Origin: Solirubrobacterales bacterium
Lineage (GTDB): Bacteria; Actinomycetota; Thermoleophilia; Solirubrobacterales; 70-9
Length of the DNA: 64,000 nt
NCBI GenBank assembly: GCA_036257815.1
Contig: DATAEW010000034.1
Location: 1,484 to 65,483, forward strand
Direction of reading: 5' to 3'
Shown here: piece after piece, positions 36,786 through 61,932 of the stretch
Layout: each line of letters starts with the position of its first letter
Position numbering within the stretch: position 1 is the first letter of the stretch
Notes under the pieces: model-generated
Database searches by the model: none
Told to the model about the DNA's origin: nothing
The model's input: the letters and a program-made list of their open reading frames with translations, nothing else
Made by a program: the position numbers and the translations under genes

Positions 36786-36822
36786 CCTGCACTTTGTAGC
36801 CCAGAGGGTTACAAAGTGCAGG
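36786..36822 (+). repeat. Hairpin cctgcactttgtagccc-aga-gggttacaaagtgcagg (related to 16621-16661)
   Basis: 17-bp stem with one position that is a G-U pair only if read on the plus strand. Followed by gatggggg, as in the other copy. A further GTAACCC / GGGTTTACAAA half-site pair lies at 36838-36870. Confidence 0.7.
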
Positions 36823-45728: not shown

Positions 45729-45781
45729 CCGAACTGCATCAAATTTCCGACCTGCTAGGGAGGAAATTTGATGCAGTTCGG
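45729..45781. repeat. Perfect 20-bp hairpin ccgaactgcatcaaatttcc-N13-ggaaatttgatgcagttcgg
   Basis: Exact inverted repeat. The loop gacctgctaggga resembles the ctataggggg centre of the 5235 and 26218 elements. Confidence 0.7.
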
Positions 45782-57531: not shown

Positions 57532-60500
57532 TCAGGCGCCGGGGGTGAGCGCGGTGAGGATGATCCGTTCCTGCTCGCGCGCGTGGGCCCCGGAGTAACC
57601 CTCGCCCGTGCTGGCACGCCCCGGGCGGCCGATGTAGGTGAGCGCCACGCCCTCGGGCAGGACGTCCGGCAGCCGACGCGACATCACCTTCCAGGCGCCC
57701 ATGTTGCGCGGCTCCTCCTGGACCCAGGCGATCTCCTTCAGGTTCGGGTAGGAGGCGATCACGCCCTGCAGCTGCTCCTTGGCGAACGGGTAGAGCATCT
57801 CGACGCGGGCGATGGCGACGTTCTCGGCGGCCTCGCGGCGCTCGCTGGCGTCGATGTCGAAGTACACCTTGCCGGTGCAGAGAACGAGGCGCTCGACCTT
57901 CTCGCGCCGCGCCGCGGTTCTCGTGTCGTCGAGGATGAAGTGGAAGTGCTCGCCGGTCAGTTGCTCGATGTCGGCGGTGGCGCGGTCGAGGCGCAGCAGC
58001 CCCTTGGGGGTGAAGACGATCAGCGGCCGCGGCTTGCGGATCAGCGCCTGGCGGCGCAGCAGGTGGAAGTACTGGGCGGCGGTGGTCGGGTAGGCGATCC
58101 GGACGTTCCCCTCGGCGCCGAGGGCGAGGAAGCGCTCGATGCGGGCGCTGGAGTGCTCCGGCCCGGAGCCCTCGTAGCCGTGCGGCAGCAGCAGGGTGAG
58201 GCGGCTGCTCTGGCCCCACTTCGACTCGCCGGAGACGATGAAGCTGTCGATGATCACCTGGGCGGCGTTGGCGAAGTCGCCGAACTGCGCCTCCCAGAGG
58301 ACGAGGGCGTTCGGGGTCGCGGTCGAGTAGCCGTACTCGAAGCCGAGGCAGGCGGTCTCCGAGAGCGGGCTGTTGTAGAGCTCGAAGGGGGCGGAGGCGT
58401 CCTGCAGGTGCTGCATCGGCGTGTACTCGAGGCCGGTGTTCTCGTCGTGCAGGACGAGGTGGCGGTGGGAGAAGGTGCCGCGCTCGGTGTCCTGGCCGGT
58501 GAGCCGGATGTGAACGCCCTCGGTGAGCAGCGAGCCGAAGGCCAGCGCCTCGGCGTGCCCGAAGTCGATCCCGCCCTGCTCGAGCGTCTCGGTGCGGCGG
58601 GCGAGCGGGCGCCGCAGCTTGCGGTGCACGTTGAAGCCCTCCGGGGTCCGCAGCAGTTCCCCGTTGAGGCCGCGCAGGCGAGCGGCCGGGACCGCGGTGT
58701 CGACCGGCGGGCTGGCGGTGCGGTCGAGCAGTTCGCCGGTGCTGGTCGTCGCGCCGGTCACGGTCGGGTCCTCGTACTCGCCCGCCTCCATCTTCCGCCG
58801 CAGTTCCTTCAGCGCCGCCGCCATCTCCTCGCGCCGCCGCTCGCCGGCCTGGCCGGCTGCCTCGGCCGAGACCGTGCCCTCCTTCATCAGCTGCTCGGCG
58901 TAGATCTCGGAGACCGGTCGGTGGGCCTTGATCTTCGCCGCCATCGTCGGCTGCGTGTAGGCCGGCTCGTCGGTCTCGTTGTGGCCGAAGCGGCGGTAGC
59001 CGATCACGTCGATCACGATGTCGCGGCCCCAGCGCTCGCGGTAGGCCATCGCCAGGCGGATCGCGGCGCTGCAGGCCTCGACGTCGTCGGCGTTGACGTG
59101 GACGATCGGCACGTTGTAACCCTTGGCCATGTCGGCGGCGAAGGGGGTGGAGCGGGCCTCGTCGGGGTCGGTGGTGAAGCCGACCTGGTTGTTCTGGATG
59201 ATGTGGACGGTGCCGCCCGTCGTGTAGCCCTTCAGCGCCTGCAGGTTGAAGGTCTCGGCGACCACTCCCTGGGCCGGGAAGGCGGCATCGCCATGGAGCA
59301 GCACCGGCACCGCCCGGGCCGTGTCCTGGTTGATCGTCGGTCCGTCGAACTCCGATTGCAGGTAGCGGGCGCCGCCGGTGACCACCGGGTCGACAAACTC
59401 GAGGTGGCTCGGGTTCGGGTAGAGGCGGACCGAGATCTTCTCGCCCTCGCTGGTCTCGTAGATCCCGCGGTGGCCGTAGTGGTACTTGACGTCGCCGGTG
59501 CCGCCGTGCGGGATCGCCGCCACCGCCTTCACCGCCTCGAGTCGCTTGGAGCCCTCGAACTCGGCGAGGATCGACTGGACGGAGCGGCCGAGGTTGTGGG
59601 CGAGGACGCTGAGCCGGCCGCGGTGGGCCATCCCGAAGACGACCTCCTCGGCGCCGGCACGGTGCGCTAGCGTGACCAGCTCGTCGAGCATCGGCACGAT
59701 CACGTCGAGCCCCTCGATCGAGAACATCTTCTGTCCCAGGTAGGCCCTCTCGAGGAAGCGCTCGAACTCGAAGACGTCGATCAGCCGGTCGAGCAGGCGC
59801 TTTTTCTCCTCACCGCTGAGCGGCTGGCGGTGGGCGCCGGTCTCGATCATCTCGCGCAGCCAGATCCGCTGCTGGTGCGAGGAGAGGTGCTCGAACTGGT
59901 AGCCGATCGTCCCGCAGTAGGCGGTGCGCAGCCGGGGCAGCGCCTCCAGCAGCGTTTCGCCCGGGACGCCGACCCGCAGGATCGAGGCGGGGATCCGCGA
60001 CATCAGCTCCGGGGTGAGGTTGACGTTCTCCGGCTGCAGCGCCGGGTCGCCCTTGGGCTCGGAACCCAGCGGATCGAGCTGGGCGGCGAGGTGGCCGTGG
60101 GTCCGGTAGGCCTTGAGGATCGAGGTCGCGGCCTGGACCGCCTGCAGCAGCTCCTCGTCGACCTGGCCCGGGGCGGTGCTCGGTTCGGCGCTCGCGCCGG
60201 GGGCGCCGAGCGGCGGCGCCGAGGCGGAGGCGGGGTGGGCGGCGGCGACCGGGCCGGCGTCGATCCCGAGGTCGGCGGCCACCGACTCGTAGAAGCCGTC
60301 CTCGCCCTGCAGCAGCTGCTCGACCCGGCGCAGGAAGGCGCCGGACTCGGCGCCCTGGATCACCCGGTGGTCGTAGGTCGAGGTCATCGTCATCACCTTC
60401 GAGACCCCGAGTTGCTTCAGCCGGTCCGGCGAGGCGTGCGCCCACTCCGGCGGGTAGGCGATCGAGCCGGTGGCGACGATCGCGCTCTGGCCGGCGAGCA

Positions 60501-61932
60501 GCCGCGGCACCGAGGCGACCGTGCCGATCCCGCCCGGGTTGGTGAGCGAGATGTTCGTGCCCTGGAAGTCGTCGGCGGTCAGCTTGTTCTCGCGCGTCTT
60601 CGCGATCAGCTCCTCGTAGTGAGAGTGGAAGGAGCCGAAGTCGAGGTCCTGCGCGTTCTTGATCGCCGGCACCATCAGGCTGTGCGAGCCGTCCTTGCGT
60701 TCGACGTCGACGGCGATGCCGAGGTTGACCGGGCCGTTCTCGATCGCGTAGGGCTTGCCGTCGCGCTGCTCGAATACCCGCACCATCACCGGAAACTCCC
60801 TGGTCGCCTGGACGATCGCCCAGGCGATGAGGTGGGTGAAGGAGACCTTCAGGCCGCGCTCCTTGAGCAGCGGGTTGATCGCCCTGCGCTTGGCGTCGAG
60901 GGTGTCGACGGCGATCGTCCGGAACGAGGTCGCGGTCGGGACCGCGCGGCTCTCGTCCATCGCCTTGGCCAGCATCGCGGCGGGCCCGCGCAGCTGCTTC
61001 TCCGCGCCGGCGAGGGCGGGGGCGGCCGAGGCGCCGTTGCCGGCATTGAGCACGTCCTCCTTGGTCACCTTCGATCCAGGACCGGTGCCCTGCACCGAGG
61101 TGAGATCTACACCGTTGGCGGCAGCGACCCGGCGAGCCACAGGGGTGGCGCGAACGTCGGCGGACGGGGCGCCGTTGCCGGCGGGTCCTGCCGCCGCAGG
61201 GGACCCCCCACCCCCTCCGGTAGCTAAAGCTTCCTCGGGGGTGGGCCCCCCTACGGCGTCACCCGCCGGAGACGCCGCACCAGCAGACGTTTCCATTTCC
61301 GCCAGCGGCTGACCGACCTTGACCTCGTCATCGACTTGGGCCAAGAGCTTGGTAATCAGCCCGCTCGCGGGGGCTGGTACCTCGGCATCGACCTTGTCCG
61401 TGGACACCTCGACGACGGTGTCGCCCTCGCTGACCGCATCCCCCTCAGCTACATGCCACTCCAGGACGACGCCCTCGGTCACGGACTCGCCCATCTCCGG
61501 CATCGCGATGACAAGCTTTTCGCCGGCGGTTCCGTTGCCGTCGCCGGAGCTTTCGTCGGACCCGGACGCTTCTCCCGCGGGTGGCGCGGTAGGGGGGACC
61601 CCCCCTGAGGAAGCTTTAGCTACCGGAAGGGGGGGTGGGTCCCCTGCCGCGACAGGACCCGCGGGTGATGCGCTTGGTCCTTCCCCGGCTTCCATCTCCG
61701 CCAAAGGGGCACCCACGGCAATCTCGTCATCGACCTGCGCCAGGATCCTGGTGATCACGCCGTCGGCCGGCGCCGGCACCTCGGCGTCGACCTTGTCGGT
61801 GGAAACCTCGACCACCGTGTCGCCCTCGCTGACGCTGTCGCCCTCCGCCACGTGCCACTCGAGGACGATGCCCTCGGTCACCGACTCGCCCATCCCGGGC
61901 ATCGCTATCTGCACGGTGGCCGTGTCTGGCAT
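57532..61932 (-). CDS. kgd: Fused 2-oxoglutarate dehydrogenase: two lipoyl domains, E3-binding domain, E2o acyltransferase core and E1o
   Basis: Two copies of MPxMGESVTEG.VLEWHVAEGD..VSTDKVDAEVPAP; PSBD ATPVARRVAAANGVDL; E2 core DHRVIQGAESGAFL; E1o region (RGRLSVLAH, HGDAAF, YGH..GPEHSSARIERFL). 1466 aa. Confidence 0.9.
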   Translation of the reverse strand: MPDTATVQIAMPGMGESVTEGIVLEWHVAEGDSVSEGDTVVEVSTDKVDAEVPAPADGVITRILAQVDDEIAVGAPLAEMEAGEGPSASPAGPVAAGDPPPLPVAKASSGGVPPTAPPAGEASGSDESSGDGNGTAGEKLVIAMPEMGESVTEGVVLEWHVAEGDAVSEGDTVVEVSTDKVDAEVPAPASGLITKLLAQVDDEVKVGQPLAEMETSAGAASPAGDAVGGPTPEEALATGGGGGSPAAAGPAGNGAPSADVRATPVARRVAAANGVDLTSVQGTGPGSKVTKEDVLNAGNGASAAPALAGAEKQLRGPAAMLAKAMDESRAVPTATSFRTIAVDTLDAKRRAINPLLKERGLKVSFTHLIAWAIVQATREFPVMVRVFEQRDGKPYAIENGPVNLGIAVDVERKDGSHSLMVPAIKNAQDLDFGSFHSHYEELIAKTRENKLTADDFQGTNISLTNPGGIGTVASVPRLLAGQSAIVATGSIAYPPEWAHASPDRLKQLGVSKVMTMTSTYDHRVIQGAESGAFLRRVEQLLQGEDGFYESVAADLGIDAGPVAAAHPASASAPPLGAPGASAEPSTAPGQVDEELLQAVQAATSILKAYRTHGHLAAQLDPLGSEPKGDPALQPENVNLTPELMSRIPASILRVGVPGETLLEALPRLRTAYCGTIGYQFEHLSSHQQRIWLREMIETGAHRQPLSGEEKKRLLDRLIDVFEFERFLERAYLGQKMFSIEGLDVIVPMLDELVTLAHRAGAEEVVFGMAHRGRLSVLAHNLGRSVQSILAEFEGSKRLEAVKAVAAIPHGGTGDVKYHYGHRGIYETSEGEKISVRLYPNPSHLEFVDPVVTGGARYLQSEFDGPTINQDTARAVPVLLHGDAAFPAQGVVAETFNLQALKGYTTGGTVHIIQNNQVGFTTDPDEARSTPFAADMAKGYNVPIVHVNADDVEACSAAIRLAMAYRERWGRDIVIDVIGYRRFGHNETDEPAYTQPTMAAKIKAHRPVSEIYAEQLMKEGTVSAEAAGQAGERRREEMAAALKELRRKMEAGEYEDPTVTGATTSTGELLDRTASPPVDTAVPAARLRGLNGELLRTPEGFNVHRKLRRPLARRTETLEQGGIDFGHAEALAFGSLLTEGVHIRLTGQDTERGTFSHRHLVLHDENTGLEYTPMQHLQDASAPFELYNSPLSETACLGFEYGYSTATPNALVLWEAQFGDFANAAQVIIDSFIVSGESKWGQSSRLTLLLPHGYEGSGPEHSSARIERFLALGAEGNVRIAYPTTAAQYFHLLRRQALIRKPRPLIVFTPKGLLRLDRATADIEQLTGEHFHFILDDTRTAARREKVERLVLCTGKVYFDIDASERREAAENVAIARVEMLYPFAKEQLQGVIASYPNLKEIAWVQEEPRNMGAWKVMSRRLPDVLPEGVALTYIGRPGRASTGEGYSGAHAREQERIILTALTPGA
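61183..61262. repeat. 80-nt palindromic element inside kgd (linker after lipoyl domain 2)
   Basis: Reverse complement of 61581-61660 (70/80 identical by ungapped hand count). Internally palindromic G/C runs flank ccggtagctaaagcttcctc. Confidence 0.8.
61581..61660. repeat. 80-nt palindromic element inside kgd (linker after lipoyl domain 1), opposite orientation
   Basis: See 61183-61262. Centre reads gaggaagctttagctaccgga on the plus strand. Confidence 0.8.

Follow-up and report, generated by a model that had tools for sequence, protein, structure and literature searches.

A dispersed hairpin repeat of Solirubrobacterales as the probable source of two lipoyl-domain linkers in a kgd/odhA-like gene

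The window analysed here is a 64-kb stretch of contig DATAEW010000034.1 from a Solirubrobacterales bacterium, and it contains a kgd/odhA-like gene (57532..61932, minus strand) with an open reading frame (ORF) of 1466 aa. Two inverted copies of one palindromic element lie within this ORF and are read through in frame, where they encode the linkers that follow lipoyl domains 1 and 2. We consider it likely that these linkers are copies of a dispersed, non-autonomous family of hairpin repeats of Solirubrobacterales, which resembles the Rickettsia palindromic elements (RPEs) in its behaviour. The family as a whole comprises at least 130 copies, with several per genome, and is probably mobile.

Two inverted hairpins in the linkers of kgd

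A repeat search of the kgd region found a single outstanding inverted repeat, with 98-nt arms at 61178-61275 and 61568-61665 that are 87% complementary and separated by a gap of 292 nt. In an ungapped comparison the arms are identical at 85 of 98 positions when one of them is inverted and at no more than 53 of 98 in any direct register, and the copies are therefore inverted, not direct. The longest run identical between the arms is 21 nt (TCCGGTAGCTAAAGCTTCCTC), and the window has exactly two occurrences of the 20-nt core CCGGTAGCTAAAGCTTCCTC, compared with 0.01 expected. When folded as single-stranded DNA, the copies reach minimum free energies between -41.6 and -48.9 kcal/mol (z-scores between -3.3 and -6.3 relative to shuffled sequences), and each copy forms a long imperfect hairpin. 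An earlier, sequence-only reading of this stretch had described an 80-nt imperfect palindrome in two inverted copies, identical at 70 of 80 positions. Its inverted orientation and palindromic nature are confirmed, and the possibility of direct copies, which would have overturned it, fails on the register comparison. The extent and identity that it gave do not stand, as the unit is ~120 nt long and the identity is that of the 98-nt arms.

Copy A occupies 61162..61292 with the strand of the element called o1 on the plus strand (covariance model R1, 120.9 bits, E=1.9e-29), and copy B occupies 61551..61681 with o1 on the minus strand (133.9 bits, E=8e-33). The kgd gene, on the minus strand, reads copy A in the o2 frame as linker 2 (about aa 221-254, ..SPAGDAVGGPTPEEALATGGGGGSPAAAGPAG..), between lipoyl domain 2 and the E3-binding domain. 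Copy B is read in the o1 frame as linker 1 (about aa 89-122, ..SPAGPVAAGDPPPLPVAKASSGGVPPTAPPAGE..), between the two lipoyl domains. The core of the apical module, found at 61216..61236 (+) in copy A, is the 21-nt run given above, and it is matched at 21 of 21 nt at 61607..61627 (-) in copy B. In copy A this core contains the small hairpin tip GGTAGC-TAAA-GCTTCC, which is the source of TAG and TAA stops in two of the three o1 frames; the apical hairpin of the window copies is of the 'GGTAGCTAAAGCTTCC' type. The codon usage of the elements is foreign to kgd. The G+C content at third codon positions (GC3) is 0.632 within the elements compared with 0.942 in the remainder of the gene, where TTA does not occur and AAA, TCA and CTT occur once each. 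Translation and codon counts thus agree with the earlier claims that both copies are in-frame linkers of the 1466-aa ORF and that they use rare codons.

The encoded protein is arranged as lipoyl domain 1, linker 1, lipoyl domain 2, linker 2, E3-binding domain, E2 catalytic domain and E1o, and Pfam recognises Biotin_lipoyl, E3_binding and 2-oxoacid_dh in it. NCBI and JGI both list an identical protein (P0001), annotated as 'multifunctional 2-oxoglutarate metabolism enzyme'. The two lipoyl domains are encoded on the minus strand at 61690..61908 (domain 1) and 61291..61509 (domain 2; Biotin_lipoyl at about aa 142-213). They form a direct repeat, D1, of 219 nt with 79% identity and 399-nt spacing, whereas the linker elements are inverted and flank lipoyl domain 2 on both sides. 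Inversion of this domain through recombination between the arms is only a possibility, and a theoretical one, since their longest identical run is 21 nt. The kgd/odhA-like protein retains a complete E2o part, with one or two lipoyl domains, E3-binding domain and catalytic domain, fused to E1o. The OdhA fusion of Corynebacterium and the Kgd fusion of Mycobacterium are not known to have lipoyl domains.

Homologues of kgd from metagenome-assembled genomes (MAGs) of Solirubrobacterales (P0001-P0120) are either single-lipoyl proteins of ~1350 aa or double-lipoyl proteins of ~1420-1468 aa. The o1 reading (..AGPVAAGDPPPPAVAKASSGVGPPTAPPA..) is found in the only linker of many single-lipoyl orthologues, and the o2 reading in linker 2 of many double-lipoyl orthologues. 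The DNA of P0031, P0004 and P0027 confirms these elements at the nucleotide level, and at loci L006 and L002 the linker of a single-lipoyl orthologue carries the same element as copy B. Nucleotide conservation between orthologues is 0.79-0.90 in the element compared with 0.72-0.84 in the adjacent lipoyl-domain coding DNA, and conservation at least as high as that of lipoyl-domain DNA is unusual for a linker. These orthologues also bear on whether a chimeric or mis-joined MAG contig could have produced the inverted repeat. The contig is metagenome-assembled and assembly errors can yield inverted repeats, but the ORF is intact across both copies, and the arms have 13 differences over their 98 positions, most of which are compensated in pairs. 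Moreover, independent assemblies show this arrangement too: linker 2 has the o2 reading in P0003-P0014, and linker 1 has an o1-type element in P0007 and P0004. We therefore give an assembly artefact practically no credence.

A dispersed family of modular hairpins

One genome per GTDB species was scanned for the exact 19-nt apical core CGGTAGCTNAAGCTTCCTC. At least 119 stretches contain the core; they come from about 85 MAG assemblies, nearly all of them Solirubrobacterales/Thermoleophilia, and single genomes such as OY969915.1 and CAWGOE01 each have at least five copies. Copies in kgd account for only 4 of the 128 non-window copies. The question of further genomic copies, which the sequence-only reading had raised, is thereby answered in its favour. 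The element had no match in the plasmid collection. In viral contigs the core had 0 matches and there was one match to the basal-stem pattern, in the IMG/VR contig IMGVR_UViG_2933023708_000001 (L126), which the covariance model did not confirm at E<=1e-4. Locus L048 (JBLMYD010000083.1) is a contig binned as Chloroflexota with three clustered copies, which may reflect mis-binning or horizontal transfer. A profile search of a 5.8-billion-protein database with the o1 peptide gave a single match, and others were probably removed by composition-bias filtering.

An alignment of 128 copies (A2) was folded with RNAalifold and gave a consensus hairpin of 28 bp with compensatory double changes at 17 pairs. 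Paired cells make up 96.6% of the alignment at these positions, compared with 84.3% after column shuffling and ~50% when the partners are slid. Double-change cells number 407 compared with 123 in the shuffles, and none of 500 shuffles reached the observed values. Conservation spans from about GGCC[CG]GCGGGTCCTG to CCACCCGC[GC]GGAGAGGCG and then stops, which gives a unit of ~115-125 nt with GGAGAGGCG as its short conserved right tail. The basal stem is constant, [GC]GCGGGTCCTGTC...GCCACCCGC[GC], and includes a conserved asymmetric internal loop. The element has ~75% G+C and the genome 70%. With covariance model R1, about 30 further copies were found in the fetched loci, including the linker-1 element of P0004 and the linker of P0027. 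These have the same basal stem and asymmetric loop, but their apical parts are quite different, 40-110 nt long, and each a perfect hairpin. Members of the family are thus built of modules, a constant basal stem carrying interchangeable apical hairpins.

The presence of the element in so many places also bears on a purely local origin, in which a lipoyl domain and its linker were duplicated in tandem and the linker was then inverted in place by template switching. The direct repeat of the lipoyl domains with its 399-nt spacing fits such a history, and Pro/Ala/Gly linkers tolerate their own reverse complement. An in-place flip would also stay in frame, because the ends of the element encode P-A-G either way. 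However, more than 119 unrelated sites in other genomes and genes have the ~120-nt sequence, which refutes local origin as a complete explanation, and single-lipoyl orthologues already have the element. We regard this history as very improbable, and an in-place flip of an existing copy as a possible last step.

The element is free of stops in exactly one frame of o1 and in one corresponding frame of o2. On o1, the two frames other than this one are closed by the stops of the tip, and the open frame gives the 'AGPV..VAKASS..PPAGE' peptide (..AGPVAAGDPPPPAVAKASSG.VPPTAPPAGE..). On o2, the frame that shares wobble positions with the open o1 frame gives the 'SPAGG..PEEALAT..GPAG' peptide (..SPAGGAVGGT.PEEALATGRGGGSPAATGPAG..). 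In both peptides the content of Pro, Gly, Ala and Ser is high. When the coding frame of the 240-nt flanks was determined from periodicity (GC3 minus GC2, the latter for second codon positions), the flank frames were overwhelmingly o1f1 or o2f0. Both flanks were in the o1 frame for 15 copies and in the o2 frame for 18, and the remaining copies mostly had one flank in the o1 or o2 frame and one weak flank. About 70 of 128 copies lie inside ORFs, defined as at least 40 codons from either end of a protein-like ORF, with 43 read as o1 and 28 as o2. Other copies are intergenic or immediately 3' of stop codons.

Pfam detected domains of the host protein on both sides of the element in the 69 spanning ORFs that were searched, and the N-side and C-side domain families are present in matching numbers, so the frame is kept across the element. 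E2 acyltransferases (Biotin_lipoyl, E3_binding, 2-oxoacid_dh) are the hosts in 14 of the 69 ORFs and DnaX (domain III and C-terminal domain) in 10. Less frequent hosts are PyrK-PyrD fusions (5), the ribosomal proteins S2 and S5 (3 each), FtsZ, Maf and MMPL (2 each), as well as S1, S17, NuoC, a DD-carboxypeptidase, a ParA-like ATPase, Lhr and GT2 (1 each). The insertion points are inter-domain linkers, membrane-protein or surface loops, and N- or C-terminal tails; the copies persist where a Pro/Gly/Ala/Ser peptide is tolerated. Flank frames and domain matches together place many copies in frame within unrelated genes.

The dnaX hosts read o1 at L042, L043, L045, L074, L100, L110 and L117, and o2 at L031, L082 and L108. 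The o1 copies in dnaX are located directly after domain III (..RIERLEQ..), approximately where the shorter gamma product ends in other bacteria. That the hairpin and its out-of-frame stops could yield a truncated product by frameshifting is pure speculation.

The two strands of the element are not equivalent in folding. Variation in the stems almost always changes one Watson-Crick pair into another. Among the mismatches, A.C on o1 (which is G.T on o2) is commoner than G.T on o1, with ratios of 24:2 where the host gene reads o1, 8:1 where it reads o2, and 28:12 elsewhere. The o2 strand folds better in 128 of 128 copies with DNA parameters and in 126 of 128 with RNA parameters. Since the mismatch asymmetry goes with the element, whichever way it is transcribed, the constraint does not act on the mRNA. 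By analogy with the ends of IS200/IS605, the substrates of REP-associated tyrosine transposases (RAYTs; REP, repetitive extragenic palindrome) and attC sites, this suggests that the element acts as a strand-specific hairpin of single-stranded DNA.

Turnover, close pairs and origin

Among kgd orthologues that are 96-98% identical over the last 1000 aa, such as P0010/P0013, P0030/P0035, P0027/P0040 and P0006/P0016, we found differing apical modules, truncated elements or none. Turnover is therefore fast, as proteins at least 96% identical elsewhere differ in modules and deletions. Between P0007 and P0013, linker 1 shows a clean in-frame indel of 72 nt, which is flanked by identical sequence and has 2-nt microhomology. 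The 'empty' linker 1 of P0013 was considered as a virgin target and rejected: the outer flanks of the element are still present, and we therefore read the allele as a deletion of the 72-nt hairpin. Linker 2 of these two orthologues has retained the basal stem, but its apical module is replaced and an outer pair has changed from C-G to G-C. The clean in-frame indels that the sequence-only reading had proposed to look for in orthologous linkers are thus present, as are replacements of the element. Truncated elements in the kgd linkers of P0002, P0012, P0016 and P0036 (e.g., ..SAGDAVGGTTPEEARAPAGNG.. and ..AAGPVAEASTPPAGG..) have lost the tip or one arm and retained the frame, which suggests decay via in-frame deletions in the hairpin.

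In genomes with multiple copies, the apical stems are more similar within a genome (0.843) than between genomes (0.773; 0 of 2000 permutations), and the middle and outer stems are not more alike within genomes than between them. This pattern is consistent with gene conversion across the conserved base, and likewise with the recent spread of a master copy particular to each genome.

A rival explanation is that the element is a DNA or RNA motif useful to the host, such as a protein-binding, RNase or pause site, that is kept by selection and made uniform by gene conversion. The binder could be, e.g., a nucleoid, gyrase-like or repair protein, and in-frame copies would then be tolerated or exapted, for instance as inter-domain pause sites; a pause could affect transcription or translation. 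The very strong covariation, the strict conservation of basal stem and asymmetric loop, and a conservation no lower than that of neighbouring lipoyl-domain DNA are all in line with such a role. So are the several copies straight after stop codons, in a terminator-like position, the enrichment at inter-domain boundaries of housekeeping genes, and the failure to find either a transposase (1.08 Mb of sampled loci) or a target-site duplication (flank scan). However, the copies occur in both orientations relative to transcription, and the wobble asymmetry, which tracks the element, speaks against a role in the mRNA, although it is compatible with a role as a DNA-binding site. Apical modules can replace one another, and the hairpin is lost in close relatives with no apparent effect. 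There is also no match to an Rfam family: a scan of the region with Rfam 15 gave only generic miRNA-hairpin matches of 16-22 bits, far under the gathering scores. On balance we find a host-useful motif rather unlikely.

Where elements lie less than 500 nt apart, their arrangement is strongly biased. Of 19 such pairs, 17 are convergent and 2 direct, with 0 divergent, and where both members exceed 100 bits, 9 of 9 are convergent, the window pair (61162-61681) among them. The other loci with close pairs are L021, L054, L055, L056, L084, L085, L100, L119, L124, L003, L042, L043, L074, L076, L048 and L110. Few direct pairs are expected, since direct repeats promote deletion, and this may be the reason why the lipoyl duplicate of kgd sits between inverted copies. 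The DNA enclosed by the pairs is lipoyl domain 2 in the window, the E3-binding domain in the E2 gene at L055, and linker sequence in dnaX. A common cargo in the intergenic doublets was considered and rejected, as the spacers are unrelated to each other.

The convergent pairs are also compatible with another mechanism, as are the module swaps and the better folding of one strand everywhere. The elements could be sites of structure-specific, single-strand recombination within genes, at which the basal stem would be att-like and the modules or the enclosed DNA would behave as cassettes. We think this improbable; if true, bacteria would have here a mechanism by which linkers and domains are shuffled.

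The explanation we favour is still that of a dispersed hairpin repeat family, for which we infer transposition from dispersal, lineage-specific sites and turnover. The kgd copies would owe their presence to insertion, or to ectopic gene conversion from other copies in the genome, and not to local duplication, and a folded single DNA strand (o2) would be recognised or propagated by an enzyme. Apical modules would then be homogenised within each genome by gene conversion across the conserved basal stems, and the hairpin would be lost again through in-frame deletions. In kgd, the opposite orientation of the copies may help to keep the lipoyl duplicate, because direct repeats would promote its deletion.

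Several results weigh against this explanation. The window has no third copy, either by blastn with word size 7 or by the covariance model with filters off, and its next-best match to the model after the kgd copies has 15 bits (E=0.07). In the 1.08 Mb of sampled loci, tblastn with IS200 TnpA and RAYT (YafM) queries gave nothing at E<0.1, which is a weak test, and no parent insertion sequence with the same ends was seen around the copies. Beside the non-internal copies no mobile-element family recurs in Pfam searches of 89 ORFs, and the neighbours are housekeeping genes. A scan over boundary offsets gave no direct target-site duplication above the chance level of GC palindromes, and only inverted complementarity was present at the flanks, ~5 nt past the constant stem. 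No virgin empty site was seen, and the sole 'empty' kgd allele looks like a deletion; a target motif, if there is one, may be a short GC palindrome such as CCGCGG or CCCGGG. The presence/absence patterns and module swaps could also come from gene conversion and deletion without transposition. Finally, the sample is biased, since loci were picked by their match to one apical core and the assemblies are MAGs.

Elsewhere in the window, short near-perfect hairpins with a GGGTTACAAA/TTTGTAACCC-like motif are located at 16617-16665 (arms CCACCCCCTGCCTTTTGTAACCC/GGGTTACAAAAGGCAGGGGGGGG) and 36786-36822 (arms CCTGCACTTTGTAGCCC/GGGTTACAAAGTGCAGG), and may represent a second small repeat or a terminator family. 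A further strong, AT-richer hairpin is found at 45729-45781.

Comparison with known repeat systems

The closest behavioural match is provided by the RPEs, which are dispersed hairpin repeats of ~100-150 bp found in frame within unrelated housekeeping genes (Ogata et al. 2000 Science, 2002 Genome Res., as summarised in PMC10969869). They share with our element the size class, the hairpin structure, in-frame copies that add a conserved peptide, other copies that are intergenic, and no known transposase. The Solirubrobacterales element is likewise multi-copy and dispersed, forms a long hairpin and lies in frame inside unrelated, intact genes. In-frame palindromic insertion, for which the sequence-only reading had cited RPEs as precedent, is thus supported by dispersal, hairpin and in-frame hosts, with insertion itself as the presumed mechanism. 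The two also differ. The element is found in another, unrelated phylum and has ~75% G+C compared with AT-rich Rickettsia. It codes in both orientations through frames that share wobble positions, has modular tips, favours Pro/Ala/Gly inter-domain linkers, and forms close pairs that are almost always convergent. From its composition, sequence homology to the RPE families (RPE-1 to RPE-10) is unlikely.

Intragenic REPs are a looser behavioural match (Di Nocera et al. 2013, PMC3733652). REPs and REPINs are also palindromes defined by structure, without target-site duplication, with proposed single-strand recognition and with common inverted doublets, and some REPs are intragenic, including in replication and repair genes (PMC3733652). 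However, REPs are 20-40 bp long, carry a GTAG/CGTC tag and are mostly extragenic (PMC3733652), whereas our element is a single hairpin of ~120 nt with an internal loop, and more than half of its copies lie in ORFs. A terminal CGTC/GTAG tag was rejected, as the flank profile shows neither motif conserved at the ends, and GTAG occurs in the element only within the arms and loop. Assignment to the REPs was thus rejected on size, lack of an end tag and genic location.

Sites of the attC type are similar in being structure-defined hairpins, like recombination sites, with a conserved base, asymmetric unpaired bases, a tip that varies, also in length, and a better-folding strand, which we regard as analogy only. 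At its ends the consensus reads GCGGGTCC.. and ..CCACCCGC, without a GTTRRRY motif, and attC was rejected as an identity. The element lacks the R and L boxes (RYYYAAC / GTTRRRY), cassette arrays and an intI context, and its copies are dispersed within genes. A MITE (miniature inverted-repeat transposable element) was rejected for the want of a direct target-site duplication. The coding palindromes of Nematomorpha mitochondria (PMC6649704) and the Coxiella QMITE (PMC5896051) are comparable as translated inverted repeats or MITEs in coding sequence, but they differ from our element in genetic system, composition and copy dynamics and have no sequence relationship to it.

Within the literature that could be searched, we met with no account of such elements in Thermoleophilia or Actinomycetota, in agreement with the sequence-only reading, which knew of none in high-GC actinobacteria. 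Neither PMC10969869 nor PMC3733652 mentions Actinobacteria.

Through these elements the linkers of 2-oxoacid dehydrogenases and DnaX become longer and more varied. Alignments and the prediction of domain boundaries can be misled by them, and their inverted repeats may destabilise MAG assembly. Protein-coding palindromic repeats have been regarded as peculiar to Rickettsia, with its AT-rich, reduced genomes and intracellular life. The elements studied here are best described as protein-coding palindromic repeats that code in both orientations, have modular tips, prefer linkers, fold in a strand-specific manner and form convergent doublets. Their coding in both orientations, swappable tips and strand-specific folding signature are traits not reported for RPEs, as is rapid turnover in essential genes (kgd, other E2s, dnaX, rpsB, rpsE and ftsZ), and the strand-specific folding provides a handle for finding the responsible enzyme. 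The phenomenon is thus also present in free-living, high-GC soil Actinomycetota and is more general than Rickettsia.

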